64,000 nt of DNA from Carcharhinus amblyrhynchos (taxonomy: Eukaryota): positions 109,306,001 to 109,370,000 of the forward strand of contig OZ336872.1 in NCBI GenBank assembly GCA_965287045.1. The letters are read 5' to 3'. Both the position numbers and the translations under genes were made by a program. A model generated the notes under the pieces. That model did not search any database, was not told the origin of the DNA, and worked only from the letters and a program-made list of their open reading frames with translations. Shown here in pieces: positions 10,549 to 42,514 of this stretch; the first letter of the stretch is position 1; each line of letters opens with the position of its first letter.

Positions 10549-10631
10549 TTAATTGCATGTGAATAAAAACACTGGAGACGTACATTATCTGAATAAAGTT
10601 AATCTGGCCTGTGGGAAGAACACTGAAATTA

Positions 10632-10660
10632 TGATGTTTGCTTCCCTCTAGTGGCTCAAA
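10632..10660 (-). promoter_or_regulatory. Candidate CTCF site (duplicate copy)
   Basis: Minus strand GAGCCACTAGAGGGAAGCA resembles the CTCF core; 29 bp identical to 50377-50405. Confidence 0.45.
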
Positions 10661-15606: not shown

Positions 15607-15880
15607 GTGTTGCACACAGGAGTGGAAACTAGGAGAGATTTGACAAAGATGTTTAGGGCACAAGATAAAAGGCGTATTAATGGGAATGTTCTCACACTTC
15701 TGAGACTAAGTGTGTGGCAGGTGATGGTGCCTTTTCCGCTGGCTAAAATGGTGGGATCCTGTATCAGATTCTACACTTGACACCTCATTAATTATAAGAA
15801 CAGCTGAATTTCTCATTGCATCACCTGACAGGCTCACAGCTGATTTGTCTGTCCTCTGTCAACTGTCAGATTTAAAGGTC

Positions 15881-16091
15881 ATGATGTGGGTATGCCGGCG
15901 TTGGACTGGCGTAAACACAGTAAAAAGTCTGACAACACCAGGTTTTAGTCCAACCTATTTGTTTGATAATATACTCGCAAGCTTTCGGGTTAGCCCCTTC
16001 GTCAGGTGACGAAGGGGCTAACCCGAAAGCTTGCGAGTATATTATCAAATAAATAGGTTGGACTAAAACCTGGTGTTGTCAGACTTTTTAC
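15881..16091 (-). mobile_element. Short Penelope-derived fold-back insertion (85-bp inverted arms)
   Basis: Arms 15920-16004 / 16007-16091 with one mismatch and a 2-nt loop; 13-bp TSD agatttaaaggtc (15868-15880, 16092-16104). Confidence 0.88.
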
Positions 16092-16904
16092 AGATTTAAA
16101 GGTCCCAGCACCATATTTAAACATCTGTCCATCATCACTCTCTCAAAAGATCTTCACCAGACTGTGCAGGATGTCAGCAACCCACAAGAAGAAGATGAGC
16201 AGCCTCAAGAAGTCTGTTCCCCGAATCAACCACTCTCCACCTGAACCCATCACCTGCATGGCACCCATGCCCACTTGGCCCTTTACCCATTGCATGTCGT
16301 GTCTTCATGAATCACTTTCCAGTAATTGATGTAGAATCTACTTGACCTCGCTGTTTGTAAAATTTTCAAGCAGACTTCATGAGGTCCAACTTTTCTTCCC
16401 TTGGTTTTTTTCTCTGCCTTCCTTTGTTTGTCTTTTTCATCCACCTCCTTACACTTCTGTCTACCATCATGAGCCATCGTCCTTTCCCCCCTCCCTTCCC
16501 CATCCCCTTGCACAGCCCTCCTTCCACATTGTCCCCTGATCTTCATCAGGAACAGCCAGCATTATGGCAGCCTGGCTTTGTTGCACTCATCTCAAAACCT
16601 CCTGTAAACTAAGGATTGCCTTATGCTTGAACGCTCTAGCAATCAGATTTTAGACTGATGTAGTTTCACGTTGGTGTGCTAGGAGTTTGAAAGACCTGAT
16701 GGGTCACTGGCGCGCAGTTGTTTTAATGAGCATTAAAGAGATGCAAACAAATACAAATGGCATTCACACAACAAACTAGCAGGAAGACCGACCCACTGTT
16801 AACCAGCATTTGAGAGAATTGCACAGTCATTTTATGCTGGCAGGTTTCTGACTTATTGGCTCCTGCTAGTTTCTCTGCTCCATCTGCCACCGAACCTGCT
16901 GGGG

Positions 16905-17712
16905 CGGGATGGAAGATGAGTTGCTGTCCCTCCAGTATGTATTGGCCTTCACTGGAACATTGCAGTGAGCCAAGGGCAGACATGTGGGTGTGAGAACGAA
17001 GTAGTGACTTAAAATGAGAGGTGACAGGAAGTTTGGGGCCATGTTTGCGGACTGAGTGAAGGTGCTCCACAAAGCGGTCATCTAGTCTGCATTTAGTTTT
17101 CCCATTGTAGAAGAGATTACATTGGGAGCAGTGAATACAGTAGACCAAATTGAAGGAGGTATATGTGAAATAATGTTTCGCCTGAAAGGAGTGTTTGGGA
17201 CTTTATACAGCGAGGAAGGATGAGGTGAGGTGCACCTTCTGCGATTGCAAGGGAAGGTGGCATGAGAAAGAGATAAGAAGTTGATGGTGATTAAGGAGTA
17301 GATTGGGACGTCACAGAAGAAATGGTCCCCATGGAATGCTGACAGGGAGCGTGAGGGAACAAAGTGTTTAGTGGTGGCATCATGCTGGAGTTGGCGGAAA
17401 TTGTGGAGGATGATTCTCTGACTGCAGAAACTGGTGGGTGAAAGGCGAGAACAAAAGGGATCCTATCATGGTTCTGGGAGGGAAGGGAAGGGATGAGGGC
17501 TGAGATACAGGAGATAGACTGGGTACAGCTGAGTGGCCTGTCAACCAGAGTGGGAAGGATCCCTTGATTCAGGAAAAAAGAAGACATGTCAGAAGTGCTG
17601 TGGAAGTTAGCATCACTGGAGCAGAGGTGGAGAAACTGGGAGAATGGAATGGAATCCTTACAGTAAGGGGTGGTCTGAGGGATTATAGTCAAGATAGCTG
17701 TGGGAGTCAGTT
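16905..17712 (-). mobile_element. Penelope-like element RT C-terminus and GIY-YIG remnant (pLTR piece at ~14645-14800)
   Basis: MVYCIHCSQCNLFYNGKTKCRLDDRFVEHLHSV and CKDSIPFSQFLHLCSSD. Confidence 0.8.
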
Positions 17713-18301
17713 TCTTTTACTTTGAAAATAAAGTTTGGCTTTTTAGCTCTAATGCTAAAAAAAAAATTAATTGCATCTGTTTTCATCTCATTACAATGTG
17801 TTGTTGAGCAACCGCATTTCATGCTGTTGATTCTTTTTAAGCGCCTCAATTTGAGATTATTGAGCACAAGATTTATGATGCAAAGTATTTGGATGAGATA
17901 AATGTCTCAATAAAACACCGGTCATTAATTTTTTCATTTAAATTTCTTTGGAATAAATTAACTCTTGCAGATTACTTTTAAAGTAACTTAATTGCAGAAT
18001 AGCGTTCATGGGACAATGTGTTGCTACTTACAAATAGTCATTATAGAAAATAATGAACAAATGTGGATAAATAAATATATTTATCAGTCAGTTTGTAACT
18101 TGTTGATTCGAAAGGACAATTCAGAAGCCATTCACTCTTCTGTTATAAACCTGTGTATTACAAAAATAAATTCAAATGCAATGGAGAAGCTATTTAAATA
18201 TTTTTCGATGTGGGAGAACCATTGCACAGTTTATTATATTTTCATTTCTTCTCAGTTTCAGTTTCCCTATAAGCATTGGAATAATCCTTCCCCATTCAAT
18301 T

Positions 18302-18447
18302 CAAATAATGGCTGGATGATAAACTTTGAGATTTAGAATGTTTCTTTGTGGATGGGCATTGTTCAACAAGCGGTGGTGGGTCATGATCCACGGTCTACTG
18401 ATCAGAATCTTGCGATGGAAGGTAAACGTCGTCTTTATGTTTGCCAC
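18302..18447 (-). pseudogene. COPS7B: Decayed copy of the COPS7B terminal coding exon
   Basis: Aligns to 53997-54155 (VANIK..QDSDQ*TVDHDPPPLVEQCPSTKKHSKSQSLSSSH); acceptor AG changed to AC, internal deletion/frameshift, in-frame TAG. Confidence 0.88.
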
Positions 18448-18800
18448 GTTAAAATTAAAAAGCAGCCACCCAAATTCATGGTCCAGAATTCTCCCATGCC
18501 GCTTGCCACTGGAATTTTAGTGGGCAGATTGTGGGCAATGTGAAATGCCATTGACTGTCAGGGTGGAATTTCTGGCTTTTAGACTAGTGTGCTGTAGAAT
18601 TCTACCCATGCTATTCCTTTTAGCAGAACATTGAACTATGATGAAGCAAAAAGAGGCAAAATTGACCTGATTGTCATGCATCTCAATGTCATCACGCTTT
18701 CGGGCAATATTTTGGTCGGTGGGTTGGATGCGTGCCCGCTGACAATTAAGAAGCTAATTTAAATGACTTACACACCAGCTGATCTGGATTTTACCATTTT

Positions 18801-19122
18801 TAGAATCCATAGAGTCCTGCAGTGCAGATTGAGGCCATTTGGCCTATCCAGTCTGCACTGACCACAACCCCACCCAGACCCTAACCACGTAACCCCACAT
18901 ATTTACTCTTCTACTCCCCTGATGCTAAGGGCAATTTAGCATAGCCAATCCATCTAACCTGTACATCTTTGGAGTGCGGGAGGAAACCCAAGCACCAAGA
19001 GGAAACCCACACAGACACAGGGAGGACATGCAAACTCCAGATAGACAGTGACCTGAGGCCAGAATTGAACCCAGATCCCTGGTGTTCTGAGGCAGCAATG
19101 CTAACCACTGTGCCACAGTGCC
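18801..19122 (-). mobile_element. HE1-like SINE
   Basis: Full-length match to 407-735. Confidence 0.8.
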
Positions 19123-19399
19123 ATCACCAGTTGATGTATGGGCATTATGGGCAGGCAGCCAATCCGTTTTTATCAGTTTGTCATCCTAGGGTGGGATAAA
19201 AAGAGCATGAACAAAGACAGGCTGAGATTGTGGGAGCTCTTGACACTCTTAGACTATAGTTTTATGAACATATTACCTGCTTTCTTTTGAGGTTTGTGCA
19301 TCTTGTTTGGAGTTTTCAGGACATTCAGTCTTGTAACACCTCTCTGACATTTCCAACCCTTTGGCACCCTCAGTGCACAGGTAAATCCCATTTACATCT

Positions 19400-21200
19400 C
19401 TGCAGACGTGAACTGTGTATTCAGCAGGGAGCATCTTCTCTGAGGAGGAAGACAGGAGCCAAAGAGAGAGGAGACTAGGTGGTCACAGGCATCACCTCAG
19501 AGACCAGGTGCAGGCACAGGGTGTTTGCAGGTAGCAGTGATGGCAAGGAAGATGGCCCCTCAGAAAATGGAACTGGCCAGCTGTCAGGGTGTCCAGGCAG
19601 TGATCCAACTCTCTCGACATGACAGTGTCACAGGAGGCTCCAACATTCAAGGGAAGCCAGGTGATTGGGCTGGAGGTAGCCTCCAACTGTGTGGGTGGAT
19701 ACTCAATAACTGTGGCTCTGAAGGTCACGGTATCGTTTAACTGTTAACTGGAATTTTCTACAGGTCATGTTTGTGGAGCTGTACATAAATATGTTAAACT
19801 GGTGAACAGGCATGTGAGCCCATCTAGGCATCAGAGTATGGTGACTAGGGGATTTTCACAGTAACTTCATTGCAGTGTTAATGTAAGGCTACTTGTGACA
19901 CTAATAATGACCTAAATTTATTCATCCATTTCATAAGAACATAAGAAATAGGAGCAGGAGTAGGCCATCTAGCCCTTCGAGCCTGCCCCGCCACTCAATA
20001 AGATCATGGCTGATCTGTTGTGGCTCAGTTCCACATTCCCGCCCTTTCCCCATAACCCTTAATCCCCTCACTTATCAAAAACCCATCAACCCGCTTCTTA
20101 AAAATATTTAGCGAGGCAGCCTTCACCACTTCAACGGGCAGAGAATTCCAGAGATTCACCACCCTTTGAGTGAAGAAGTTCCTCCTCAACTCCGTTCTAA
20201 ACCACCCCCCCTTTATCTTGAGGCTGTGCCCCCTAGTCCTACTGTCCTTTCTGAGTGGGAAATTTCATAGCGAGGGGGATTGAATATAAAAGTAGGGAGG
20301 CCTTGCTGCGGCTGTATAGGGCATTGGTGAGGCCGCAGCTGGAGTACTGTGTGCAGTTTTGGTCGCCGTACTTACACAAGGATATTTTGGCCTTGGAGGG
20401 AGTGCAGAGGAGGTTTACTAGGCTGATACCGGAGTTGAGGGGGTTGAGCTATGAGGAGAGGCTGAATAAACTAGGCTTGTCAGAACAGAACAAGCCAGTA
20501 GGGCTGAGTTGTCCAGAGGCGTTGTGGCTCACAGGATTCCCCTACATCCAGGGTGCTATTGATTGCATCCCTGTGGTCATCAAGACGCCAGTCGACCAGC
20601 CGGGCATCATTGTTAATAGGAAAGCGTATCACTCCGTGGACATTCAAATCATGTGCAAACACAGAACCCAGATTCTACAGGTTTGTGCGAGACACCCTCG
20701 CAGCTCTCACGATCCTACATACTGAGACACTCACGTGTAAGGTTGTTCATGGCTCCAACTCACCTCAATGAATAGTTGCTGGGTCACAAAGGATATTCCT
20801 TGAAAAGGTGGCTGATGAAGCCACTCAGGCACCTAAGGGCAGAGGACAGATACAATCACTGTCATGTCTCCACAAGGGAGGTGGTTGAAAGGACAATAGG
20901 TCTGCTAAAATACGACTGCTCCAGGGGTGCCCTGCAGTATTCGCCACAGCGAGTTTGCTTACCGTGGTTGTCTGCTATGTTCTACAATATCTTGTTCTCT
21001 CCAGAGAGGAACTGCTGGACCAAGTGGACACTAAGGCAGGTACACTCACCTCAGAGAGGAATCCAAAGAAGACTCAGATGCAAAGCCCATACAGACACGT
21101 GGCAAAAATGAGCAGCTAGAAATGAGGAACCTTCAGGGAGGCACAGACACCAGGGAGTCCTTGATTCAGGGTTCCTTCATCTGGACTGCCAAGGCTTGCC
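19400..21200 (+). mobile_element. PIF/Harbinger transposase remnant
   Basis: GFPYIQGAIDC, NRKAYHSVDIQ, HPRSSHD, LGHKGYSLKRWLMKP, STREVVERTIGLLK: HARBI1-like DDE motifs, frameshifted. Confidence 0.85.
19932..20480. mobile_element. Young CR1 insertion with 5' inversion
   Basis: 3' tail segment on minus (19932-20261) joined to an upstream RT segment on plus (20264-20480); both near-identical to 32050-33150. Confidence 0.85.
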
Positions 21201-22189
21201 TTCCATCTCAGTCCAAGGGCACTATGAGAAAACACTGCCTCAGTAATAAAGTTTGCTGCCCCAATCTTTTTTTAATCAGGATTGATGGTGCCAAAACCCC
21301 TCAAATATTCAGGACACTGAGGGATTGTGAGCAAAGTAGTCATTTATCTTTTGATATTTAAGGGAAACAAAAGAAAGTATACAATCTTAACTGATAAATA
21401 CATGTGTGATATTGATAAAAAAGCAGAAGCCACTTGTGCAAACCCTTTGCTGTGCTACTTTGCCATAAGCTTATGTTTGCGGGTGCTACATCTTGATGCT
21501 GCCCTCTTTCCCCACTTTGCTGACAGAGGTTTTAGAGGCAGGCTGCTGATTGTGGTGTCTAGTTGGCCCTGATGACCTCTATTTGGCCATTGGGGTCTGA
21601 GCAGCTTCTGCCTGAGAGGGTGCACACAGTAGCATGGCTGGGCATCTCTCAATGAGCACGGACTCTGAAGATGGCAGGATGATTGAAAGAGAGGTGGAGG
21701 AGTTGCTCTCTTTGTCCAGGGTGCCATGAGAGGAGTCAACAAAGATGATAGTTGTCTGCCAATGTGAAGTATGTTTGTACCTTGCTGTTCACCACTGATG
21801 GATGTGCACCTATCTGAGGGACTGGGTACCACATCCATCTACCACACTGGCAGTGACCTCCTCAGGTCATAGCCTCGGCTCACAGGTCTAATTGTATCCA
21901 ACAAAGATCTGAAATATTTATCATCTTTTACGAGTGACTGGTGCAAAATAGGACTTGGGGAAAACTTGCATGTGATCTATTTTTCTAATATAGCTCCTTC
22001 ATTGTAATAATATCTTCATCATATTGATTAAACTCTGTGAGCTTAATGTAGGATTCTGTCGAACAACAGTATAGTGAGGGTGTGCAGGTCTGAGTGCAAC
22101 CCCTGTCATGTTCAAGTCCCTGCTATCTTTCCCCTCTGTTGAGTTCCCCTCATTGTCGAATTGTCATCAGCCACCATCAGTGATTGAAC

Positions 22190-24100
22190 TGTTGGGTGTT
22201 AAAGATGGTGACAGCAGAGATGGTGGGTGCATTAGTTACGCTATTCCAAAATTTCCTGGATTCTGGAAAGGCATGGACTGGAAGCATGCAAATGTGCCCT
22301 TCAAGAAAGGAGAGAGGCAAAAGGTGGGAAACTTTTGACCAGTCAGCTTGGTCTCTGTGGCGGGAGAGTTGCTGGAGTCAATCGTTAAGGAGAAGGTAAC
22401 TGAGCATCTGAAAAAGCAAAGCTCAATTCACTAGTGTCAACAAAGTTTTGTGAAGGGCAAGTCTTGTTTGACAAACCTGCTGGAATTCTTTGAGGATGTA
22501 ACCAGCATGGTAGATAATGGGGATCCTGTGGGTGTGAGCTATTGGGACATCCAGAAGGCATTTGATAAGGTGCTACACAAAAGACAGATTCAGAAGGTTA
22601 GATCCCAAGAGGTTAGGGATAGAATAGTAGCTTGGATTGAGGATTGGCTGACTGATAGAAAGCAGAGGTTTGGGATAAATGGGTCCTACTTTAGTTGCCA
22701 ATCTGTAACTAGTGAGGTCCTACAGGGTTCAGTTCTCGGACTACAACTATTTACAATCTATATCAATGATCTACAAGCAGGGACAGTGTGTAGCATAGCA
22801 TAATTTGCCGATGACACCAAAATAGGTGGGAAGGCTGTGATGAGGAGATAAGAAGTTCACAAATGGATACTAACAGGCGAGGGGAATGGGGAATGGGCCA
22901 GAATCTGCAGATGGAGTTTAATGCGGATAAATCCATAGAATTCCCACAGTGCAGAAGAAGGCCATTCAGCCCGTAGAGTCTGCATCGACCACAATCCCAC
23001 GCAGGTCCTATTCCCGTAACCCCACATATTAACCCTGCTAATCCCCCTGACCCTAAGGTCAATTTAGAATGGCCAATCAACCTAACCCACACATTTTTGG
23101 ACTGTGGGAGGAAACTTGGAGGGAGCCTATGCAGACACAGAGAAAACGTGCAAACTCTACACAGACAGTGGCCCGAGGCCGGAATTGAACCCAGGTCTCT
23201 GGAGCTGTGATGCAGCAGTGGTAACTTCTGTGCCACTGTGCTGCCCCTGTGAGGTGATCCATTTTGGCTGAAAAAAAAATAGGGGAGCAAATTACTATTT
23301 AAATGGGAAACAGATTCAAAAGGCATCTATGCAGAGGCTCTGGGTGTCTTTGTGCATGAACCTTAGAAAGTGGGTATGCAGGTGCAGAATGTTATAAGAA
23401 AGGCAAATGGAATCTTGACTCTTATTGAAGAAAGTCTAGAGTATAAAAGTGAAGAGGTTATTAAAATTATATAAGGCACTGGTGAAACCACACTTGGAAT
23501 ATTGTGTTCAGTTTTGTTGCCTTCTTTGAGGAAAGATGTGGTGGAACTAGAGGTAGTTCAGAAGAGGTTCACTAGATTGATTCCAGATTTGAAGGGGCTG
23601 TCATAGGAGTGGTTGAGTAGCTTGGACTTATACACATGGAGTATAGAAGAATGATGGGGATTTGATTGAGATATATAAAATGCTCAAGGGGATTGATAAA
23701 GTAAAAGTTAACCAAATGCTCCCCCCTTCTAGAACAGCATTGGACAAGAGTTCAAAGTTGTAGAGTAAGAGGGGACAGGTTTAAGACAGCAAAAAGACAA
23801 GGCAATGACCGAAGAAGAAAATTTGAAGTTGAAGGAGCCTCAATTAATTACATATCGCCTCAGCACTTTAGAGCAGACAGAGGAGCAAGTTTACTTCTCA
23901 TAGAGGGTTGTGAAACTATGGAACTCACTACCCCAGATTGCAGTGGATGCAGAACCAATCAATGGATTCAAGAAAGAGTTAGATAAATATTTGATCAAAA
24001 GTGGGATAAAGGGCTATGGGGAAAAGGGAGGTAAGTAGAGTTAGGACGAGACGGAGATCAACCATTATCATATAGAATGGTGGAGGGCCGAATTGCCTAC
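22190..24100 (+). mobile_element. Degenerate CR1 RT, with an HE1-like SINE inserted at 22933-23247 (-)
   Basis: KGKSCLTNLLEFFEDVT, DIQKAFDKV, QGSVLGLQLFTIYINDL. Confidence 0.88.
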
Positions 24101-26442
24101 TCTCGCTTCATTAGACCAGCAAGGAAACATTTTTCCCTTCAAAAGAAAACACCCAGAAGCTTTACTCACCCGCCTTCCTTTACCAATACTCAAATAATTC
24201 TCTGAACAACCTTGAACCATATTTTCCTTTATTACTGATTCTAAAGGAGCATGTATCATCTGGAATAGTTACAGTTTTAATAGACATTTATTTTTCAGGT
24301 GCTCCTTTCCTGTTACTACAACCGGTTTCCTATTTAGTTTCTAACAATCTGCCTGAATAGGTCCTATTTTGTTACAATGGAAACACTCATGCCTCTGAAT
24401 GTTAGTTCCACCTTCCGTACCTTCCCTTCTGAGCTGAGGTGAAATTTCCTGATCATTCCCAACTGTTTTTTCTCTTCCCTAACTGTTTATTTCCTTTCTC
24501 CATCCCACCTTCTATCTTTCTCAGTTTTGAAAGGATGCTGGAAAAAAGACTTGGGTTCTTTAGATCCGTTCAGGATCATCTAGTTCTGTTGCCTGTCTGA
24601 CAGTTTTAACTTTGTGTTCCTCTTCACGAATTCTAATAACGAAAGGAAGTGAAACTTCAAATTCTTCATAAAGAATCACCTCTCTAAGGGCTTTGTATGT
24701 TCCTGCTACGACTGATGCCCATATTCAATGGTCAAAATGACTTTGCTTTACTCTCAGTGATTCGATATAGGTTTGACCAGGCTGTTTTCTTGAAATTTTG
24801 AAAGTTGCCATAGTCCCACCATAACTGCTCTTCCCACGTGCTTTCAGAAATCTACAGCTGGAGCATAGTGTCTGGCCTTATGATTACTTTTTCTAAAACT
24901 CTGGTTAGGTTAGCTTTTGCCTTTCAGTTGGAACCTAGACCAGGAAACTGAAATTCTCCATTCTCTGTGGGTTACTGCACATTCAATTGGGACTACGATG
25001 TTGTGGCCATTACGGAGACATGATTAGAACAGGGACGGGAACGGTTGTTGGCAGTTCTGGGATATAGATGTTTCATCTGGGATATAGATGCCCTGCGGCC
25101 TATGATGTCCTGGGCAAGTGTCCCCTGAAGGACTGGGACCACAAGGCCTCCAACCGGCTTTCCAGCGTCACAGATGTATGAACCGCTCTGTTCATCCCAC
25201 TGCCCTTGAGACGCATCAGGGTACAAAAAGGGAGTCAGAAGCCTTAGTCTCCCTAGCGCAAGGCCCAGCGTGGTCTGCAACCCCTCCTCCTCCCTTGGAG
25301 TGGCAGTGGGCCCATTGGTCGCTCCATGGGACACATTCTGCAGCCCCTCAGCCTTGCCCTGCTGTGAGTGGATCACAATCTCAAGAGCTGCAGCCGTACC
25401 CCGCTGTGTCTTGGCACCGTCCCAGTGGGTCCCCTGAAACCTCTCGAGGCCCTCAGCCATGGCCCTCAGAATCCCAATAAGGCTGTCAAGCGGATAGTGG
25501 GAGACAGCCATCATGGACTTGGGGGAGTGGGAGACACTCCTGAGGCAATGTGTGGGAATGCAATGGGAGGGTGGGAAGGTGGAGGGAGGGTGGTGGAGTG
25601 GGGGGAAGGTGGAGGGAGTGTGGCTCACTGTGCAATCAGGGAAGGGGGTGTGATGATCACTCTGCAATCAGGGAGAGGGGGCCACAAGAGGGAGGGTTTG
25701 TGAGGAGGCACGCTGGGGGTGGGGGTCCATGAAAGAAGGTCGAGAATGTGGGGGAAGAGTCCCAATGTCCATGGCGGGGAGGGGGGTGAGGGAGACTGTG
25801 TCTGCAGGTGTGGTGGTGGGGTGGGAGGGCGCTGCTGTTTTGCTGCTTGCACATGCACAAGTGGAGCCTCTGACCTGAGCTGCCGGCTCTCAGGCCATTT
25901 AAGCCCTACCCCTTCTCCCTACAAGCCAGAAACTGTAGGAAAGATCTTTTTCTTGCTCCAGGAGCATAAGATCACAGATTTGGACTCGCCAAAGAAATCA
26001 AAGTCTTGATAAGACAGTTCAGCTGCAGCTCCTGTTTTCACCCTCATTCTGGATTTTCCTCATGAGATTGCCCAAGATGTATCCCAGCCTTGGGAATAGC
26101 TGGAAAATTTGCATTCTGAGTTACACCTGGACACAATCTACATGCTACAGTTCAGAAATGTAACTATTTCAAAATAGTCGGAACCTGTCTCAATGTGAAT
26201 AAAACCTTTAAGTTTCCACATTGTAATCACAGTTTTAAATAATTTGAATCTGGGCAAATCCTGGATTTCTTTCCCCTGAATTGGGTATGTGGCTGGAGCT
26301 GCTGTTTCCATGTAGCAGACATCAAGAGTGAATTTCCGAAGGGATACAATCAGCGACAACAGGAGAAAGTTCCTCATGCTTGAGTTAAATTACCAGCAAA
26401 ATGAATCAAGCAAATTTGTGCAATTTTGCAGCGAATATTCAC

Positions 26443-29171
26443 TGTCGCTAGGTGTCGTAGATCAAACAGCCCAGACTGCTCGCTGATCCTTTTCATTCCA
26501 GTTTATGTCCGAAACGGCCACTGCCCGTCCTTTTTTGTTTTTCTTCTTCTTGCTAATTCGTTTCTTTTACTTCTCGCCGTCCGGGGGTTCCTAAAACTAG
26601 TCTTTGGGATTTAAAGCTGCGGGTGCATCTATTTCAGTTGAGGAAAGGTTCTGAGAAAATTCCTCTCCTAATAAATCTGCAGTATCCTGGGTGAAATGGA
26701 GTTAGACACTCAGACACATCAGAATATAAGGGAAGTAGCTCCGTGTTATTGTTCATCATTAGAAACCTGATCAACGCTTTTCCAGAAATGTACTTCATAG
26801 AATCATCGTGTAAAAGAGGCCCTTCGGCCCATTGAGTCTCGACTGACACATGAAACTCCGGAGGTCCCATCTTATCCCATTTACCTGCACCTGGCCCATT
26901 ATGAACGTTATGGCATGTCAAGTGCTCATCCAGAAACTTTTAAGGATGTGAGGCAACTTGTCTCTACCACCCTCCCAGGCTGCACATTCCAGACCATCAC
27001 CATCCTCTGGGTAAAAATGTTTTCCTCACATTCCCCCTAAACCTCTTGACCCTCACCCCTTGAGTCTATGTCCCCTCGTGACTGACCCTTCAACTAAAAG
27101 GAATAGCTGCTCTTTATCCATGCCCCTCCTAATCTCATACACCTCAATCAGGTCACCCCTCAGACATCTCTGTTCCAACGAAAACAACCCAAACCAATCA
27201 ACATTCTCTTCATAACTTAAATGTTCCATCCCAGGCAGCACCCTAGTGCAGTTTCTCTGCATCCCCTCCAGTGCAATCAAATCCTTCCTATAATGTGGTA
27301 ACCAGAACTGCACGCTATACTCTAATTGTGGCCTCAAAGATCTGTGCAACTCCAAAATGACTTTGCTGCTTTTGTAATCTATGCCTCAACTGACAAAGGG
27401 AAGTGTTCTATCAGCTTTTTTCACCATCCTACTAACCTTCCTCCTTCAAAGATCTGTGGATAAATACACCAAGGTCCCTTTGTTCCTCAGAATTCTCTAG
27501 TGTCATGCCATGCATTCAATACTTGCTTGTCAAATTACTCCTTCCAAAGAGTACCTCACAATTTTCAGGGTCAAATTCAACATACTATTTATCTGTCCAC
27601 ATGGGAGGGTATCCATCATATCCGTCTATATTTTCTTATAGGCTAAGCCACTCAGCCTCACTGTTAACCAGTCTGCCAATCCTCATGTCATCTGAATCCT
27701 ACCCCCCTCCCCCCAAACATGGTGATTTAAAGTTTATTTATTAGTGTCACAAGTCAGCCTACAATAACACTGCAACAAAATTCTGTTAAAATTCCCTAGT
27801 CGCCACACTCCGGTACCTGTTCGGGTACACTGATGGAGAATTTAACATAACAAATGCACTTGGCCAGCACTTCTTTTGGACTGTGGGAGGAAACTGGAGC
27901 ACCAGGAGAAAACCCACACAGACATGGGGAGAATGTGCACACCCCACACAGACAGACAGACAGAAGTCAGGAATCAAACCTGGCTCCCTGGTGCTGTGAG
28001 GAAGCAGTATGGCCAGGGATACAATTCATCCTTCCCCATATCAATTTGCTCAAGAGCCTTGCAATCTCTTTCCTTGAATTCCATACCTTCATCTTCATTC
28101 TCTTGGATGAAGAGGCCATGAAATATTTACCCAACACTTCACCAATGTCCTCTGACTGCACCCACAGATTGCCCCCCTTAGATCCTAATTGCTCTACTCT
28201 TTCCCCTGATTTTCCTCTTCCCATTGATATACTTTTGGAATATCTTGGGATTTTCCCCTACGTTTACCAGCCATAGCTTTTTCATATCCTCGCTTTTCTT
28301 TGCTAATTGTCTCTTTGCTGGCTACTATATCACAATCCATATGTCAATCATTGCCCTTAACTCATCAATTTTACCTGTAATACTCCTAGTGTTAAAGTAG
28401 AGGCTAGCCACCTTACCTCATATCCTTGAAACTTATACAGCTATACTCTTTCTATGATGCTCTGCCCTTATTCTGCTAATAGTCACCCTACCCCAGCTCA
28501 ATCAGGTTAAACTCCTCCCAACAGCACGAGCAAAATGTCCCGAAAGGATGTTTCAATCTGATATTTTTCAGGCCGCCTTATTTCTACCTGAGTTTGTCAT
28601 CAAATATTAAGAATGAAACGTGAGATTGTAGAGCATCAATTAAACTGAATGCACTTCATTAATCAATACACATTTCAATGTAAAGAAATCCAATTGCAGT
28701 TATAAACAGCACCTGTTTTATATGAATTCTAGCTGGATAGCTTTTTTTGGTGAATGTAACCTTTACAGTTGCATTAGCACAATGCATGCAAAGTATTAGT
28801 TTCACACATCTTTGGACACTAAGGGACAATTTAGCATGGCTAATTCACCTAACCTGCAGATCTTTATACATAGGGACGAAACTGGAGTACCTGGAGGAAA
28901 CTCCACACAGACATGGCGAGAACGTGCAAACTCCACACCATCACCCAAGGCTGAAACCGAACACAGCATGCCGGCACAGTGTGACAGCAATGCTAACCAT
29001 TGTGCCATCATACTGCCTGACAACGCTCCTCATTGCAGATTGCCCATGTCTACTGATCCCCAACAATTCACATCAACTTACTCGCTGTGAGCGAAGCAGG
29101 GGGGTTGCATCCACTCTTGTAGTCAAGAGAGCTAGGAATAGTCCAAAAAGCAAAATCCAAATAATGCTCAT
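26443..29171 (-). pseudogene. Natriuretic peptide (NPPC/CNP-like) pseudogene, copy A; exon 1 CDS 29082-29171, exon 2 26443-26686
   Basis: Exon 1 MSIIWILLFGLFLALLTTRVDATPLLRSQR|gtaagt; exon 2 cag|DTADLLGEEFSQNLSSTEIDAPAALNPKD* with stops at 26597, 26591, 26567, a frameshift, then KRTGSGRFGHKLE*KGSASSLGCLIYDT*. Confidence 0.88.
26794..28550 (-). mobile_element. Degenerate CR1 in intron 1 of NP copy A (with SINE 27727-28010)
   Basis: LRPQLEYSVQFWLPHYRKD; same position as 37473-39750, so inserted before the duplication. Confidence 0.8.
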
Positions 29172-31070
29172 ACTCGTTTGATAAAGTGGTCAATTGTACA
29201 CCTAGATACAATGAAATGAAAATTGGTTAGAGTTCTGTCTGCTGCCTCGAGAGCAAGAATTCTCTGTTGCTTTCCCGGCTGCTTTTCAATCGTTTTATAA
29301 CGTGGAATGATTTCCCAAAATATCATTTGATGATATGAATACATTCCCATTTTATTTATGTTAACACCGTCTCTGTATTTAAATGTTTGCTCTGAAGTTA
29401 AATAAATGTAAGGATGGGGAGGAGTCTGGGAGGATGGAGCTATCCAGGCTGCAACTCGGAGGCAACCTATCCTACTCCCAACCCCAATCTCCCCCACACC
29501 TCGCCCTGGCAATCTTTTGGTCCAGGATGGACCGATTCACTTTTGTGGGCATTGAGCTTGGGAAGGGCTGTCTCATTGCAGCTGCTCCATTGGAATGAGG
29601 CTAACTGGACACCAACAATTCTTCCTATGAATAATTTAACTTGTCTGGAGGCTTGGTCGGAGGTACTTAATGCAGCCCAGCCTCTGGTTGATCCGGTGAC
29701 ATTGGAAGCATTTTCCATGTTAGAAATTGCAGAAACATTCGAAAGTGAATGAGTGCGCGACTAGATTGTCAATACAGGTTCAATCCAACTTCCGCAAATT
29801 ATCGGTAGAAATGATCACGTTGGCATTGTAGCTGGGATAGTCAATCAGTTATGATAAAAGTGCATTTCGCGCAACATTGGTGCTCTTTGTAGCTCAAACC
29901 TCCACCAGCGAGTCAGTCTATTATTGACTAGTTCAGGGCTACGTTATCGGTCTTGTAACTGATTCGTCCCAGTCAGTACATGTTTCAGATGGAAGGGTTT
30001 GGCTGATAAGAAACAATGGAAACTGCAGGCTTCCAACAGGTAAAATCACTCTTTGAGAGGGAGAACTGACTGATGGCGACTTTACCTGATAATCACCACA
30101 TCTCAGGCATGGGGCAAGGTTGAGAAGCCAAGTCTTCATGAATAACCTCAGCCTATACAGGACTCGAACCCATGCTTTTAGCATCGTTCTGCATAAGGTA
30201 ACCAGTTGTCCACACAAATGAGCTGAACAATCCTTGAACGCCATAATGAAAGCTAAGAGAATTGGAGCTTTGTCTTTAATTCAGTGTTGCCACTATTTTT
30301 ACATGCAATTTGCAGCACAGAAATACCAGATGAAGCACCAGATGAACCTTCTCATAACCCTATGTGCATTAATATTTTATTTGCATCTCACTGAGATTTT
30401 ATTGGCTGCTTTTGGGCTAGATGTTGTACAAGAATGGGAAGATGGCCTATTGTACCCAATGGATTCCAGGGTTTCAAATAAAGACACTTCACTAACAGCA
30501 AAATGGCAGGCTACAGGAATTATTGGTGTCAGAGCTAGACAGAGTTGTTCATAAATTAACCAGGAAGGGGTTTCTGTTTTTGGTTGATGATAATATGTTA
30601 ATGGCAACAGATAGCTATATATTTTGAATTATTGTCTTATGTGAAGGTAAGACAATAAACAAGAAAGATTTAGAGGTCTTTTTATATTGTATACCAGAGA
30701 GTACAGACTGTTACTCTGTTTGCTTGACTGCATCAGTACAGGACATACAATAGGACATACCAGGGCAATTTTCCACATTGCCATGTAAGCGCCAATTTGG
30801 TTCCAGTGCAGCTACAACTCTTGCATCGAGCTGACAATCTGGAAAATTACCCAGATATGTTCTGTGGACACAAATTCCAGAAGTGAGGCATTAGCAATCC
30901 CTAGCAAATTTGGAGTGAATGGGAATCTGGAGGGAAATCTCTCGATTGAAGTCATATCTAACTGAGAGGAAGATGGTTGTGGTCTTTGAAGATCAATCAG
31001 CTCAGTTTCAGGATGTCACTACAGGAGTTCCTCAGGGTTATGTACTCAACCCACCTTCAACTGCTTCGTC

Positions 31071-31485
31071 ATAGAATCATAGAAACCCTACTGTGCAGAA
31101 AGAGTCCATTTGGCCCATTGAGTCTGCACTAACCACAATCTTACCCAGGCCCTAATCCATATCCCTATATATTTATTTTTGATAAGCGAGGGGATTAAGG
31201 GTTATGGGGAGAGGGCGGGAAAGTGGAACTGAGCCATGACAGGTCAGCCATGATCTTATTGAATGGCGGGGCAGGCTCAAAGGGCTAGATGGCCTACTCC
31301 TGCTCCTATTTCTTATGTTCTTATGTTCTTATATTTTCCCACTAATTCCTCTAACTGACACAGCTCAAGACACTAAGGGGCAATTTTAGTATGGCCAATC
31401 AACCTAACCCACACATCTTTGGACTGTGGGAGGAAACTGGAACACCTGGAGGAAACCCACTTAGACACGAGGAGAATGTGCAATC
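31071..31485 (-). mobile_element. HE1-like SINE carrying a short young CR1 tail (31176-31331, +) at the unit A/B junction
   Basis: SINE body flanks gataagcgaggggattaaggg..cttatgttcttatgttctt; atattt on both sides of the CR1 piece. Confidence 0.75.
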
Positions 31486-32049
31486 TCTGTGTTTGGCCTC
31501 ATGATTTTTTTAAAAACTCTGGTTAGGTCATCCTTTGCCTTCCAGTTGGAACCTAGACCCGGAAACTGAAATTTCCCATTCCCTGTGGACTATTGTACAT
31601 TCAACCTCCAAATAAGAACATAAGAAAGAAAATAAGAAAATAAATGAACTCATAGCACAGAAATTAAAAAAAATCATTAAATGTTTGGAAGAGTTGGGAT
31701 ATGTAAAAAAACTTCATGTAGCTAATTGTTGGGGAAAGGGTCCAAGTCACCTTACGGGGAACAAGTTTTACTCGATAACCTCCCAATTTTTATTTAAAGC
31801 AGGTTTTACAAGTCCGGCAAGAATCAAAAATTCAACTGGTAAATTTGAAAGATTTATTAACCATTAAAAGGTAGATGGGCAACAAGTTAGAAAAATGAAA
31901 GAACAATGATTCACTTGGCAATAAACAGCAGAAATTAACAGTAATCAACAGTATTAACAAAAAGAGAGGATTAACTTTAACAACTCAAAGCTTTCCTCAA
32001 TGTAGTTTTTAAAAGATATTCCATAGCAGTTCAAAACAGCTTCTGACCA

Positions 32050-33150
32050 TACTGGTTGTCAAATAGTAGGCAGAGATTGGGGGTCAATGGGTGCTGTTCG
32101 GATTGGCGGTTGGTGACTAGTGGAGTGCCTCAGGGGTCGGTTCTGGGGCCTCAGCTATTTACCATTTATATAGATGATCTGGAGGAGGGAACCGAGTGTA
32201 TGGTGTTGAAATTTGCTGATGACACCAAGATTGGGGGAACGGCAAATTGTGCGGAGGGTGTGGAGAGTCTGCAGAAGGATCTAGATAGGCTGGGCGAATG
32301 GGCCAGGAACTGGCAAATGGAATTTAATGTTGGCAAGTGCGAGGTGGTCCACTTTGGTAGGAATAATGGTAGGAAGGATTATTACTTATGTGGAGAAAAA
32401 CTGCAGCAGGCAATGGTGCAGAGAGACCTTGGGGTCCTTGTGCATGAGTCGCAAAAGCCCAGCTTGCAGGTGCAGCAGGTGGTCAGGAAGGCTAATGGGA
32501 TGCTGGCCTTCATAGCGAGGGGGATTGAATATAAAAGTAGGGAGGTCTTGCTGCGGCTGTATAGGGCATTGGTGAGGCCGCAGCCGGAGTACTGTGTGCA
32601 GTTTTGGGCGCCGTACTTACGCAAGGCTATTTTGGCCTTGGAGGGAGTGCAGAGGAGGTTTACTAGGCTGATGCCGGAGTTGAGGGGGTTGAGCTATGAG
32701 GAGAGGCTGAATAAACTAGGCTTGTACTCGTTAGAGTTTAGAAGAATGAGGGGAGATCTCATTGAGACGTATAAGATGACGAATGGGATGGATAGGATAG
32801 AGGTGGAGAGACTCTTCCCACTCAGAAAGGATAGTAGGACTAGGGGGCACAGCCTCAAGATAAAGTTGGGGGGGGGGACGGTTTAGAACGGAGTTGAGGA
32901 AGAACTTCTTCACTCAAAGGGTGGTGAATCTCTGGAATTCTCTGCCCGTTGAAGTGGTGGAGGCTACCTTGCTAAATATTTTTAAGACGCGGGTTGATGG
33001 GTTTTTGATAAGAGAGGGGATTAAGGGTTATGGGGAGAGGGCAGGAAAGTGGAACTGAGCCACGACAGATCAGCCATGATCTTACTGAATGGTGGGGCAG
33101 GCTCGAAGGGCCAGATGGCCTACTCCTGCTCCTATTTCTTATGTTCTTAT
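32050..33150 (+). mobile_element. Young CR1 LINE, 5'-truncated
   Basis: 276-aa RT ORF (VTSGVPQGSVLGPQLFTIYIDDL, KFADDTK); frameshift in a G run near 32870; cttatgttcttat tail. Confidence 0.92.
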
Positions 33151-33179
33151 TGTAATAAATAAGAAGACCTTTCAGACTT

Positions 33180-33530
33180 TTGTGAAATGTAATTTAACAC
33201 ATAACAGCGATTAGGACACATTTTACAAACTTCATATTTCTTTCACTTGCAGTTCACCATCTGTTCAGTTGTTACATAAATAATTTTTATAAATATCTCT
33301 TTTATAAACATATAAATATTTTAAACATAAATACATTTATGCAGAAATGAAATGATCAATTTATAGTCGTGACAATTTACAGGGGCATTAGTTCCTACAA
33401 CAATTTCCTTGGCGTGTTTCTTTCCAGACTCGTACCAGGAGTAATGGCATCATTTTCTTCTTAAACGGTATTTTTTGGGAGACGATGAGAAGCAGAAGAA
33501 ATTTCCGGAGCCCATCATCAACACGTTGTC
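33180..33530 (-). other. Probable non-coding exon 3 (AU-rich 3'UTR) of NP copy B
   Basis: Acceptor tttctattcacag| at 33531-33543; several TATTTAT motifs at ~33270-33340 on minus; matching donor gtgagt at 37136-37141. 3' end not determined. Confidence 0.6.
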
Positions 33531-33548
33531 CTGTGAATAGAAATATAG

Positions 33549-34212
33549 AGGCGATCTGATCAAATACATTCTATGTCCAGGACATTACGCACTTTTGAGT
33601 GACTGACCCCTCCCCTCTCTGATCCCTCCCAATCGCCGGCACCATCTCTTCATGATCGTCATCCCGATCCCGCACCACCTTCGTGATCACCGGCCTGATC
33701 ACACCCCCATCCCACCACCTCTGTGATCACCAGCCCGACCCTCCCACAATCGTCGGTTGATACCTCCTGAAACCACCAGCCTGCCTCCATCCCTTCTGCC
33801 AGCCCCAATGTCCCCCTTCTTCCCCCATTGATTTCTAATGCCGAGTGGGAGGAGGTTACCCCCGCCCCCCTTCCACTGACCCCTACCCCAGGTCGGATGC
33901 CAATTCCCAGGAGGTCTCACCCCTTCATGCACCACCTTCTTTGGTGGGCAGTGCTAGGATGCCCAGTGGGCAGTGCCAGGGTGCCCAGTGGGCAGTGCTA
34001 GGGTGCTGGATAAAAACATTCTGCGCTCATTAATTCAATTCAAAATTCATTTAAATATAGTTTCTATAAGCAATTTCCGGTGCAAGGCTGATCGCACCAG
34101 ATATCTGGGCTGGTAACACCGTGAAAGGTATGAACCTGATTTCTCCGCTTTTACACAATGTTACCAACTCACACCACCCATAGGTAGATGGGCAATGATA
34201 AGATTGCCCCCA
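33549..34212. mobile_element. Harbinger-type MITE with internal short tandem repeats
   Basis: Ends ggcgatct.. / ..aagattgcccc are imperfect inverted repeats; internal gtgggcagtgc repeats at 33944-34005. Confidence 0.5.
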
Positions 34213-34369
34213 TATTGTCAGTGCGGAACAGAGCAAGTGATCAACACAAACTCTGGCAGGAGTAGGCCATTTGGCCCCTCAAGTCTGCTCCGCCATTCAA
34301 TAAGAGCTTTTTGTGGACTCAGCTCTACTTACCCGCCTGCTCTCCATAACCCTTAATTCCTTTACTGTT

Positions 34370-34800
34370 CAAATGAGGCCCACACTGCCACCTGGTCCAT
34401 CGTGGAGGAGTGCATTGGGCTCCTCAAGATGTGGTTTCGGTGCCTGGATCACTCTGGTGGGGTCCTCCAGTACAGCCACCAGAAAGTGTCCCACACAGTG
34501 CTGGTCTGCTGTGTGCTCCACAACTTGGCACAGCAGCCTGGAGACTTTTTGGAGGCGGAGGAGGTGGAGGATGATCAGTCGGATGTCGCTGGGTTGGAGG
34601 TGGCCCAGGAGGATGTGGAGAAGGAGGAGGAGGGGGATGACGAGACCAGTGAGAAACCAGACGATGGAGAGCATGCAGCTGCAGCTTGGGTCTGGCATGC
34701 CAGGATGGTGAGAGAGGCCTCCGTATCGCTTCCAGGTTTGCCAACTAGGGAGCATGTATTACTACAGCTGGAAAGCAACTCTCCCCTCTACACCGATTAA
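34370..34800 (+). mobile_element. Harbinger transposase C-terminal remnant
   Basis: EECIGLLKMWFRCLDHSGGVLQYSHQKVSHTVLVCCVLHNLA followed by an acidic tail. Confidence 0.85.
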
Positions 34801-37160
34801 CCCCAGTCACTCTCCCAAGCCATGGCAACACCAGGGTTCTGGGCCTGGGGAAGGCATGTTAACAGGTTCCTGTCACAGGCAGGAGGGTGATGACAACTGA
34901 CAATGCAGCACAATGTGATGGTGCCTGGTGCAAAATGTCTGGCTCTGCAAACAAACTGGCACCTGGACCCACAACTGGGTGCAAATCATAGACCATGAGC
35001 CACCTTTGGGTGGATGGGGAGAGGGGTATCTTGCACCTGCTTGGTTTCAGGGATGCCATGGCAGCTTCAGTGACTCAATAACTGTGCATGAAACCCAGAA
35101 CTGATGATTCTGAGTGCTTTGAATGTAAGTGCGGTGATGGGTAAACAACATGCGCCTGAATTTGGGGGTTGCAGTAGTGGTGTGCCGAGGGCCCTCCCCC
35201 ACACACACAATGTTCAGAATCCCTCTGGCTTAGCTCAAGGTATGTTCATCACTGCTGGAGGATAATCAGAGACATATTAGTCACAGTTGAGGGGTGCAAT
35301 TCTTGTCGTTAACGGTGCAATAAGTCAACATGCTCACTGTTAATATGTTATAAATAAATAAACTAAACTGTTCATCCCACTGCCATTGAGATGCACCGGG
35401 GACTGGTAGTGGGGGGAATCAGAATGCACAGCGAGAGCCACAGTCCCTCGGGTGGAAGGCCCTCTAAGAATGGCCAAGCTCTGCAGCTCCTCAGCAATGC
35501 CCTGCTGTGAGTGGGCAGCCCTAACCCACTGTATCTCAGCACTGTCCCGTTGGGTTCTCTTCTTGAGGCCTGCAGAATCTTAATCAGGCTGTCAAATGCC
35601 TCAACTCAGCCAGGGCCCTCTGGAACTCCGCCATGTCCTGCTGTGACTCAGCCATCACTTGGACTCTGCCACTCATGGCATTTCTCTGTGCCAGTGACCA
35701 TGCATTGACTGCTACTGCCACCGCCTCTCCCAGGCCACTCTGCCATCCCTTTCCCTGGCTCAACGCACACCCAGGGGGAATAACATATCCCTTCTCTCCT
35801 CCATTGCAGCCAGGAGACATGGCATCTCTCCCTCTGAAAATCTGGGGGCCATTCCTCTGGCATCCATCTTCCTGCCCTGTTTGCCTGTCTGTCCATTCTA
35901 GGGGTTAATATGCAGGTCTCCCTTGTTAAGGCAGTCCAGCTGCAGACAGTTTGGGCGAGTCATGCACCCATTAGAGCACTCCATCAAGATTACACACAGT
36001 TTGCTTTGTTGTACTGAGGGGGAAGCCAAGGCAAGTCTTGCAGGTATACTGATGGGGTGAGGGGGGGGGGTGATGGGGTGAGGGGGGGTGATGGGGTGGT
36101 TGGAATGTGATGCTGTGGTTATGGGGGGGGATGTTGGCGGCAGAGAGACTGTACAAATGCGTGGGGGGAGAGGGGGAAATGGGAGACAGTCATTGTGGAC
36201 ATGGACTGCGAAGGGGGAGTTGAAGCCAGTCACTGGGGACATGAGGGGAGAGGAGATTGCGAGACAGTCATTAGGGACATGGGAGAAATGTGGGAACATT
36301 TGTCAACATGAGAATGTTATCGGCGGGGGGCGGCGGCGTGTAGTTCACAGTGCAGTCAGGCAAGGGGATGTGATGATCACTCTGCAATCACGGTGAGGGA
36401 GGCATGAGAGGCGAGGGTAGTGTGCCGGGGGCGGTCTGTAGAGAGTAGGGGTTGAGAACGTGGCGAAAGATCCCGATGTCCGTCCGGGGGAGGGGGCGAG
36501 GGAGACAGGAGGGGTGGTGGGTTGGGATGGCGCTGCTGTTTTGCTGCTTGTACATGCACAAGTGGAGCCTGAGCTGCCGGCTCTCGGGCCATTTAAGCCC
36601 CGCTCCCTTTCCCTACATGCAAGAAACTGAAGGATTTTTTCCTTGCTCCAGGAGCATAAGATCGCAAATTTGGAGTCGCCAAAGAAATAGATCCGTTGAT
36701 AAGACAGCTCACTGCAGCTCCCATTTTCACTCATTCTGGACTTAGAATTTTTTTCATGAGATTGCCCCCCCACTGTACCCCAGCCTTGGAAATAGCTGGA
36801 AAATTTGGGCTCTGAATTACGCCCGGATACAATCTACATGCTACAGTTCAGAAATTTAGCCATTTCAAAATAGTGGGGACCTGTCTCAATGCGAGTAAAA
36901 CCTTTATGTTTCCACATTGTAATCACAGTTTTAAGTAATTTGAATCTGGACAAATCCTGGATTTCTTTCCCCTGAATTGGGTGGTGTGTAGCTGGAGCTG
37001 CTGTTTCCATGCAGCAGACATCAATTGTGAATCTCTGATGGGATACAATCGGCGACAACAGGAGAAAGTTCCTCATGCTGGAGTTAAATTACCAGCAAAA
37101 TGAATCAGGCAAATTTGTACAATTTTGCAGTGAATACTCACTGTCACTGGGTGTTGTAGA

Positions 37161-37358
37161 TCAAACAGAGCCCAGATTGCTCATTGCTCCTATTTTGTCC
37201 AATTTATTTTTGAAACAGCCACTGCTCGACCTGTTCTTGTCTTTTCGGTTTTTCTTCTTCTCATGGTGGTGGTCCTTGGGATTTAAAGCTGCGGGAGCAT
37301 CTATTTCGGTTGAGGAAAGGTTCTCAGAAAACTCCTCATCTAATAAATCTGCAGTATC
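37161..37358 (-). CDS. Natriuretic-peptide-like precursor copy B, coding exon 2 (pro-region and mature peptide)
   Basis: cag|DTADLLDEEFSENLSSTEIDAPAALNPKDHHHEKKKNRKDKNRSSSGCFKNKLDKIGAMSNLGSV*; resembles CNP-22 GCFGLKLDRIGSMSGLGC; exon continues to donor after 37142. Confidence 0.85.
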   Translation of the reverse strand, partial: DTADLLDEEFSENLSSTEIDAPAALNPKDHHHEKKKNRKDKNRSSSGCFKNKLDKIGAMSNLGSV

Positions 37359-40361: not shown

Positions 40362-40451
40362 TTGCTTTGAGCGAAGCAGGTAGTTTGCATCCGCCCTTGT
40401 GGTCAAGAGAGCTATGAATAGTCCAGAAAGCAAAATCCAGAAGACGCTCAT
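40362..40451 (-). CDS. Natriuretic-peptide-like precursor copy B, coding exon 1 (signal peptide)
   Basis: ggaATG..MSVFWILLSGLFIALLTTRADANYLLRSKQ|gtaaat; 90 nt, phase 0, hydrophobic core with A-D-A cleavage motif; joins exon 2 in frame to give 95 aa. Confidence 0.85.
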
Positions 40452-40572: not shown

Positions 40573-40600
40573 TTTTATAACGTGGAATGACGTCAGCGGG
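40573..40600 (-). promoter_or_regulatory. TATA box and perfect CRE of NP copy B
   Basis: Minus strand cccgcTGACGTCAttccacgtTATAAAA (CRE 40588-40595, TATA 40573-40579), about 120 nt upstream of the ATG. Confidence 0.8.
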
Positions 40601-42514
40601 CGTCTGTTTTGGAACTTATTAAGCTGTAACTCAGTTGCAGCGAGAACAATGTGGAAGATCTGCACGATACAAATCTGGTTCCAAATTATTTGTTTAATAT
40701 CCGGGGATATTTGGTGCAATCTCTATTCTTTGTACAACTACCATTAAAACATTCGCGTAATTCAGTGATGGCCTTAAATACCATAGTAAGTGTATTTTAT
40801 CTTAGTTATAGGATTAATCCTTTGACGTCTATTGATGTATGTATGTAACACTTTGAACTCAGATTTACAGTTTAGATGTGAAAACACTCGGAGAGCAGAA
40901 TGGGTGCACAACTATCCGAGAAAAACGTAAATATCTGCACTTTTCACAAAATTAACAACGTACACAATCAGCAACTTAGCTGAATAGTTCATAAGTACAA
41001 ATGTATTATTCCACATTGAAATCTTCAACGAATAAAACTGGAAGCAATCCATCATATCTCGAAGATTGTCTATTTTAATAGAAGAATTCGCTTTATTCGT
41101 TAACTTCAGTAAAATCTGCAAATCTTAGCTTTTGAGAAAACAAAATTGTACAATTCTGTTTCACACCACTTTGGGAATGTGAGATATTACTGAACAAACA
41201 TGCAGATATCTTTAATACATGTTGTCAGAGATAAGCTAAAATAATGCAGCACTGCAAATCCCTGTGTCAGTTAATGCCATGCTTAGGGGGAATTAGATAT
41301 AGTGTTTGGGTCATTTCTTTGCTTCAGTTCCAACAGAACAACTATGAGAATTGGGAACTGGCATTGTAACTATATAAGAGAAGCATTAACTCACTTAATA
41401 AAGCAACAAATAATTATATGTAAATGTTCCCAAAATATCATTTGATGATATGAATGCTTCCCCGTTTTATTTGCATTAACACCGTCTCTGTATTTAAATG
41501 CCCGCTCTGAAGTTAAATGTAAGGATGGGGAGGAGTCTGGGGAAGGTGAGGATAGATATCCAGGCTGCAAACCATAGGCAACCTATTCCATCCAACACCC
41601 CCAAACTCCCCCGCACCCTCACCCTGGCAATCTTTGGACCAGGATGGACTATTTCAATTTTGTGGGTGTAGAGTTTTTGGAAGGGCTGTCTCATTGCAGT
41701 TCCCGTCGGAATGAGGCTAGCCGGACACCAACACTTCTTCAGTCTTCCTATGAATAATTTAACTTGTCTGGAGGCTTGGTCGGGGGTACCTAATGCAGCC
41801 CAGCCTCTGGTTGAACCGGTGACATTGGAAGCATTTTCCATGTTAGAAATTGCAGAAACATTTGAGAGCGAATGAATGCATGATTAGATTGTCAATACGG
41901 AATTAATCCAATTTCTGCAAACTATCGGTAAAAATGATCATGTTGACATTGTAACTGGGATAATCAGGTGTGAACAAAAACTCATTTCACACAAACATTT
42001 TACAAAATCTATTTGTACAATCTGAAAATATTTACGTAGTTTTAAATGCGCTGTGTATCGGAATCTGAACAAATGTGAATGACCTGCTCTACACGTTACA
42101 TCTTGATTTTCAATGCACTTGTAACGCTTCATCTGCATTGGATTCCTATGTTGAGAGTCGATTGTAGTCAGTGCTAAGCAATCGCAAACTTTAACATTTC
42201 TGACAGGTTTTCATTTTCACTTGATTTCATTTGTTGTCCCTCCTGCATTATTGTTGTAGTAATTGCTTTCCCCGATTTATTACCAGTGAAACACTAATCC
42301 ATTGATTGGTCAGCTCCAGGCTTGCTAGCCATCATAGCCTCCATAACAGGCAGACTTCATGCCACAAAGCTCTGTTCCCTGTTCTTCTTTCCATTCAGTG
42401 TAATTTATTCACTCTACATTGGAGATACTAGATGCAGAAGAGATATTCCACTTTGAGGAAGGTCTCCTTCCAGTCTTCAACTGCCCTCAGTCTGACCTCT
42501 GGCTCCTACTGTGC

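Follow-up and report, generated by a model that had tools for sequence, protein, structure and literature searches.

A probable decaying NPPC duplicate that has lost its ring-closing cysteine in the shark Carcharhinus amblyrhynchos

We analyzed a 64,000-nucleotide stretch of Carcharhinus amblyrhynchos DNA, called the window throughout, in which one of two NPPC-type gene copies, copy B, carries a 2-nt duplication that moves its ring-closing cysteine codon out of frame. We conclude, with a probability of about 0.7, that B is a clade-wide, decaying NPPC duplicate lying beside an intact parent, copy D. In the history that we propose, D would have been duplicated first, and the duplicate would have split into the B and A/C lineages, drifting under relaxed selection. 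A duplication of CT, likely by slippage, would have cost B its ring-closing Cys in an ancestor shared by a group of related sharks; in some of these, a later point change would have made an old out-of-frame TAG the TGA seen today; and an inverted duplication would have inserted a 26-kb block in the 3′ region of B, copying exon 3 of D. Any product of B would be without the disulfide ring on which the cyclase receptor depends, and probably inert. Because the ring is lost in B and is required for GC-B activity (PMC10454581, in excerpt), such a product is predicted to be inactive at GC-B/NPR2; general background on the ring and on furin is given in an excerpt of PMC9219612.

Four NPPC-type copies and the structure of copy B

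A DNA search of the species' own genome identified four NPPC-type copies, all of them on contig C3. Copies A and B are located inside the window on the minus strand, and copies C (~22 kb) and D (~30 kb) to the left of it on the plus strand.

G000:C3:109275397-109275657 (L010:9397-9657), plus strand: copy D, intact NPPC/CNP4 orthologue
29082..29171, minus strand: copy A, coding part of exon 1 (pseudogene)
26443..26686, minus strand: copy A, exon 2, with an in-frame TAG, a frameshift, Cys1>Arg and a TGA in the ring

We regard D as the NPPC/CNP4 orthologue because it is intact, its nearest matches are NPPC-type and DIS3L2 lies close by, as in human. The ring of D ends in GGC TGT TAG, that is, Gly-Cys-TAG, and is nearly unchanged between D and seven named shark proteins. 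Its best protein match is the CNP of Mustelus asterias (88% identity), followed by other sharks and then by NPPC-type proteins of bichir, lungfish, amphibians and mammals; shark database entries for NPPC/CNP4 carry the names "CNP 2-like" or "CNP 4-like". The C-terminal exon of DIS3L2 is found at G000:C3:109.019 Mb on the minus strand, ~256 kb from D and on the opposite strand, and human NPPC sits by the 5′ end of DIS3L2 according to an excerpt of PMC3689787. The DIS3L2 neighborhood identifies the cluster as a whole, D being the copy nearest to that gene. Neither AATAAA nor ATTAAA occurs within ~2.3 kb past the stop of D; its poly(A) signal is non-canonical or located further away.

Copies A and C are near-identical to each other and both are broken. 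In both, the propeptide is interrupted by a TAG, the frame is shifted, Cys1 is replaced by Arg, a TGA lies in the ring and the proximal promoter is deleted; the CRE is also cut by a deletion. In exon 2 of A the TAG falls at codon 30, and the frameshift is seen in the 161 nt that lead up to the ring, against 198 in D. The earlier note had measured B against A as a normal copy; A being a pseudogene itself, we rejected it as the reference and took the normal ending from D. Three further intact, ringed CNP-type genes were observed in this genome, a tandem pair 9 kb apart (L019 and L020, G000:C30:18.296-18.305 Mb) and L022 on a small contig (G000:C471:23011-23097).

The promoter and first two exons of copy B are laid out as follows.

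40623..41377, minus strand: proximal promoter, 7.4% substitutions relative to D; deleted in A and C
40573..40595, minus strand: core promoter, with a CRE-like TGACGTCA at 40595-40588 and a TATA box at 40580-40573; the same elements are present in D
40362..40451, minus strand: coding part of exon 1, 30 codons, signal-peptide-like
37142..37358, minus strand: exon 2, with propeptide, shortened basic segment and broken ring
37167..37170, minus strand: 2-nt duplication shifting the ring-closing Cys codon out of frame
37161..37163, minus strand: TGA stop in the shifted frame; AGA in public runs X7 and X8
33531..37141, minus strand: intron 2 of 3611 nt, collinear with its counterpart in copy C

B retains a start codon, the TATA box and CRE, GT/AG pairs and dibasic sites. 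Its exon 2 matches the Pfam ANP family PF00212 with 32.1 bits (cut-off 27), and B is 59% identical to D over the aligned exon 2. The translation of exon 2 (37358-37142) comprises 65 residues, has a single Cys and a stretch of His, Lys and Arg, and terminates in G-S-V-stop, as the earlier note had predicted for the product; likewise, the TGA (37163-37161) does stand 19 nt ahead of the last donor, at 37141. By the rule of 50-55 nt from the last junction, nonsense-mediated decay (NMD) of B is unexpected. The splice sites had also been called intact, which holds for the GT/AG pairs but not for donor 1, whose GT is followed by a +5 G>A change relative to D and A; donors that lack both −1 G and +5 G are weak. 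Upstream of the insertion, the indels of exon 2 leave it a net 66 nt shorter and in frame, the segment measuring 132 nt in B vs 198 in D, and the His-rich stretch is best read as an eroded copy of the Asn-rich/basic processing segment of D after an in-frame deletion.

In its layout B resembles the NPPC/CNP4 genes of jawed vertebrates: it has a signal exon, a propeptide-plus-ring exon and a 3′ UTR exon, its stop lies ~20 nt from the donor, it scores above the Pfam ANP cut-off, and its parent D is near DIS3L2, where the excerpt cited above places human NPPC. It differs from them in its single Cys, in Lys at ring positions Gly3 and Arg8, in a propeptide 22 codons shorter and in an intron-like divergence.

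The two-base insertion and the order of events at the stop

At 37164-37173 B reads aacagagccc, and at 26465 A reads aacagccc. The extra dinucleotide is contained in the AGAG at 37167-37170 and represents, on the coding strand, a duplication of CT to CTCT, so that the 2-nt insertion and the loss of the ring-closing Cys reported in the earlier note are confirmed. That note had also advised looking at other individuals. Parts of the stretch are contained in 22 public runs, 8 of which were compared with the window; none of the 22 is listed as an RNA run, which has no bearing on expression. In 6 of these 8, from 5 studies, a single contig spans 37167-37170 without an indel and carries the extra bases, with 2-6 other letters different: X1 and X4 (study P1), X5 (P2, contig depth 2), X6 (P3), X7 (P4) and X8 (P5). 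The insertion-bearing runs include four differently labelled organisms. X12 shows no indel, but its piece begins 8 letters from the site and was left out of the bridging count.

Because the contigs of six of the eight runs carry the same bases, the insertion is neither an assembly error nor a private allele. Two suggestions of the earlier note, an assembly error and a gene only just disrupted in one animal, are thereby excluded; its idea of a disrupted gene survives as the best reading, except that the loss is clade-wide and befell a duplicate that was already drifting. There is next to no chance that the extra bases are artefactual or private and that B encodes a normal peptide with a ring. 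Dinucleotide duplication is a frequent error type, the compared runs differ from the window at few letters and probably do not include the assembled animal's own reads, and a copy lacking the two bases is present in X20; however, the contigs that bridge the site would all have to be misassigned, and the X20 copy shows A-type letters at 37229, 37208, 37192 and 37183-37184.

This X20 copy (window 37124-37327) retains both Cys codons and the TAG, judging from 15 listed letters out of the 21 that differ, and has a middle part that exceeds that of B by 39 nt without loss of frame. It resembles an A-type gene that has stayed unbroken in a more distantly related organism; its ring core is strongly changed, and it may be a divergent CNP paralogue that is still alive in a more distant shark. 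The ratio of A-type to B-type contig depth, which is not a copy number, was ~2:1 or more in X1, X4, X5 and X6, ~1:1 in X7 and ~0.3:1 in X8.

Particularly informative for the order of events are X7 and X8, in which the insertion is present and 37163 A>T makes the TGA an AGA, that is, the ancestral TAG read out of frame. Since these runs carry the insertion yet read AGA, the frameshift preceded the stop. X1 and X4 keep the TGA, all their other letters being accounted for; X5 and X6 keep it as well, judging by the tally of changes, where both A>T places fall in the A-type contig. As X7 and X8 read AGA, the tidy one-Cys end is not a conserved product, and their spliced frame would extend by 54 residues if exon 3 there resembles that of the window. 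The TAG>TTG change is common to B, A and C and may reflect either mutations that arose in parallel or a conversion tract no longer than ~12 nt. A tailed, ANP/BNP-like ancestor of A and B was considered and rejected, as the TAG of D is still present in X7, X8 and X20.

The late stop could also have been favored only for removing a harmful hydrophobic tail, B being transcribed and translated and its one-Cys peptide, monomer or dimer, tolerated without selection. Promoter elements and GT/AG pairs are present, the stop is close enough to the last junction for NMD not to be expected by the 50-55 nt rule, and the AGA state would add the 54 residues under the proviso just given. Nevertheless, we consider this quite improbable: A has the same TAG>TTG change though nothing is trimmed there, so a mutable site or a short conversion suffices, the first donor is weakened, and the original distal 3′ end now lies 26 kb away.

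Ring changes, selection on copy B and a possible ring-less product

A 17-residue ring was present in 118 of 120 fetched proteins, with both Cys in 118/118. B does not encode such a two-Cys ring, its second ring Cys codon being out of frame, and differs at positions 3, 8 and 17, all invariant in the 118 rings. Gly3>Lys and Arg8>Lys are each found in 0/118, and the residue of B at position 4 occurs in none of them either. Phe2, Lys5, Leu6, Asp7, Ile9 and Gly10 are retained; the invariant core Phe2-Gly3 and Asp7-Arg8-Ile9 is broken at Gly3 and Arg8.

Between B and D, dN/dS is 0.89 over 78 alignable codons (9 synonymous and 27 non-synonymous differences, unpolarised) and 1.7 in the ring block. Divergence in exon 2 (53/348, 14-17%) equals that in the introns (85/610, 13-15%; p = 0.63). 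Exon 1 of B differs from that of D at 22/303 sites (7.3%) and exon 1 of the dead copy C at 20/288 (6.9%; p = 1.0), and the promoter of B lies at 7.4%; about half the intron divergence is what we infer for one constrained plus one free lineage. The conserved promoter of B was therefore rejected as a sign of life, its divergence from D being equal to that of dead C's exon 1.

Among B orthologues, the listed changes in exon 2 comprise 6 missense, 1 silent and one stop/sense change and a 9-nt in-frame deletion (X4), a count that leaves out 4 letters of X5, 4 of X6 and 1 of X12; X8 also has a change at donor +5. The probability of at least 6 missense changes in 7 is 0.58 at a dN/dS of 1 and 0.035 at 0.2, and the listed changes fit the former better. 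In a neutral simulation, 1.9-3.9 disabling hits were expected on the B branch, and one is seen, at the last codon; the probability of none upstream of the insertion was 0.02-0.15. Since the simulation makes the open upstream frame improbable, B was probably translated or kept in frame for part of its history.

In weighing decay, we counted in its favor the intact D, the changed invariant ring residues, the dN/dS value, the equality of exon 2 with the introns and of exon 1 with that of dead C, the mostly missense changes among orthologues, the variable C-terminus among relatives and the agreement of exon 3 with the arms of the inverted duplication in divergence. Counted against it were the open upstream frame, the in-frame indels, the surviving TATA box, CRE, start and GT-AG pairs, and the later TGA at the codon following the shift, just where selection against a long tail would place it. 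The case is weakened by the few, unpolarised synonymous differences behind the dN/dS and by the incomplete orthologue tally. Duplicated (unprocessed) pseudogenes of birth-and-death clusters are like B in keeping introns and promoter, in having an intact parent nearby, and in their dead sister copies (here A and C); near-neutral change agrees with the dN/dS and the intron-like divergence of B, less well with its open upstream frame. B differs in its single disabling hit, at the last codon. A disabling change in an essential feature, the lost Cys, and an intact paralogue, D, are both present.

It is unlikely, in our judgment, that B is a living gene whose ring-less product would bind the clearance receptor NPR3 like osteocrin and so spare CNP from clearance. 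Osteocrin is a ring-less NPR3 binder, as described in excerpts of 10.1101/697094 and PMC11291853, and offers a precedent. Besides the six ring residues named above, B keeps an exon 1 that resembles a signal peptide, together with dibasic sites and an open reading frame; the later stop shortens the read-through tail, and the insertion persists across the 5 studies. However, osteocrin uses two motifs resembling the ring interior (PMC11291853, in excerpt), B has a single one, and Gly3>Lys and Arg8>Lys fall in the very part of the ring that these motifs mimic; Arg14 of ANP, at the same position as ring Arg8, contacts NPR-A according to an excerpt of PMC5471452. Moreover, two organisms (X7 and X8) are without a stop at that place, and exon 2 shows no sign of purifying selection. 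Ring residues Gly3 and Arg8 presumably matter for NPR3 as well. The NPR3-selective or dimer peptide put forward in the earlier note finds no positive support in the sequence.

We give the same low likelihood, as one joint judgment, to the idea that a group of sharks would have turned a spare CNP4 gene into a ring-less one-Cys peptide in two steps, a frameshift and a new stop, so that a ligand of NPR3 like osteocrin would have arisen independently and recently, its intermediate stage still being found in living relatives. Were B alive, a cyclic hormone would have become a linear clearance-receptor ligand, with ringed, frameshifted and re-stopped states at hand in related species; such a route has reportedly been proposed for osteocrin. 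Osteocrin/musclin (OSTN) is like B in having an NP-like sequence without the cysteine ring, and B differs in its derivation from NPPC by local duplication, its single degenerate motif, its one remaining Cys and a C-terminal end not conserved between relatives. The Musclin family gave no match in exon 2 of B at E up to 10, only PF00212 being matched, and none in a search of the species' own genome run without a positive control. No B- or A-type protein was present among the best 120 of 241 matches, exon 2 of B as a single query found no protein, and a literature search, whose scope left most subscription journals outside, found no paper on shark NPPC duplicates.

If B is dead, as we favor, the cluster is an ordinary birth-and-death cluster, of modest use in documenting a lineage-specific expansion of NPPC in sharks.

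Exon 3 and the inverted duplication

The 3′ part of B borders on a large rearrangement.

33149..33530, minus strand: exon 3 (3′ UTR) of B, 5 mismatches in 399 relative to D; likely copied from D
7275..33150, minus strand: right arm of an inverted duplication, ~26 kb, carrying copy A and set into the 3′ region of B
6764..7258, minus strand: displaced distal 3′ sequence of B, where D homology picks up again 8 nt past the end of exon 3

Exon 3 of B shares 98.7% identity with its counterpart in the true hormone gene, so that annotation or primers may pick up B. Its mismatches relative to D (1.3%) compare with 15/199 in dead C (p = 0.0001), which could be taken to mean that B persists for its RNA, with a strongly constrained 3′ UTR and a coding part free to change. 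We find this very improbable in view of where exon 3 lies. The inverted duplication joins window 7275-33150 with its mirror block next to D, G000:C3:109277334-109305289, in arms of ~26-28 kb around a spacer of ~8 kb. The arms are 1.06% apart over 24,607 sites, A and C are mirror copies, and ~2.9 kb holding exon 3 of C is absent from the arm of A. The 26-kb block starts at the end of the exon 3 homology, and homology to D resumes at 7258, 8 nt further, at 7.7%. The 1.3% can thus be read as the age of the inverted duplication whose edge exon 3 touches, and the far side of the block is still homologous at the greater distance. The divergence of exon 3 is indistinguishable from that of the arms (p = 0.62), and there is no need to assume constraint on the UTR. 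The simplest reading is one repair event, in which a break in the 3′ region of B would have copied exon 3 of D together with the C-bearing block, creating A and pushing the distal 3′ end of B itself away.

A catshark gene model, P0010, spans this UTR and is yet clearly diverged from that of B, which likewise speaks against an RNA role. P0010 and a second public shark gene model, P0033, have no ring and depart from the usual frame within exon 2, with P0010 continuing through the 3′ UTR exon; both look like prediction artefacts over gaps rather than ring-less peptides. Finally, the only open frames of at least 200 aa in the window are 9482-10426, 32047-32886 and 24993-25667, the first two of which lie within a repeat, presumably LINE-like, that has many nearby copies at 92-97%.
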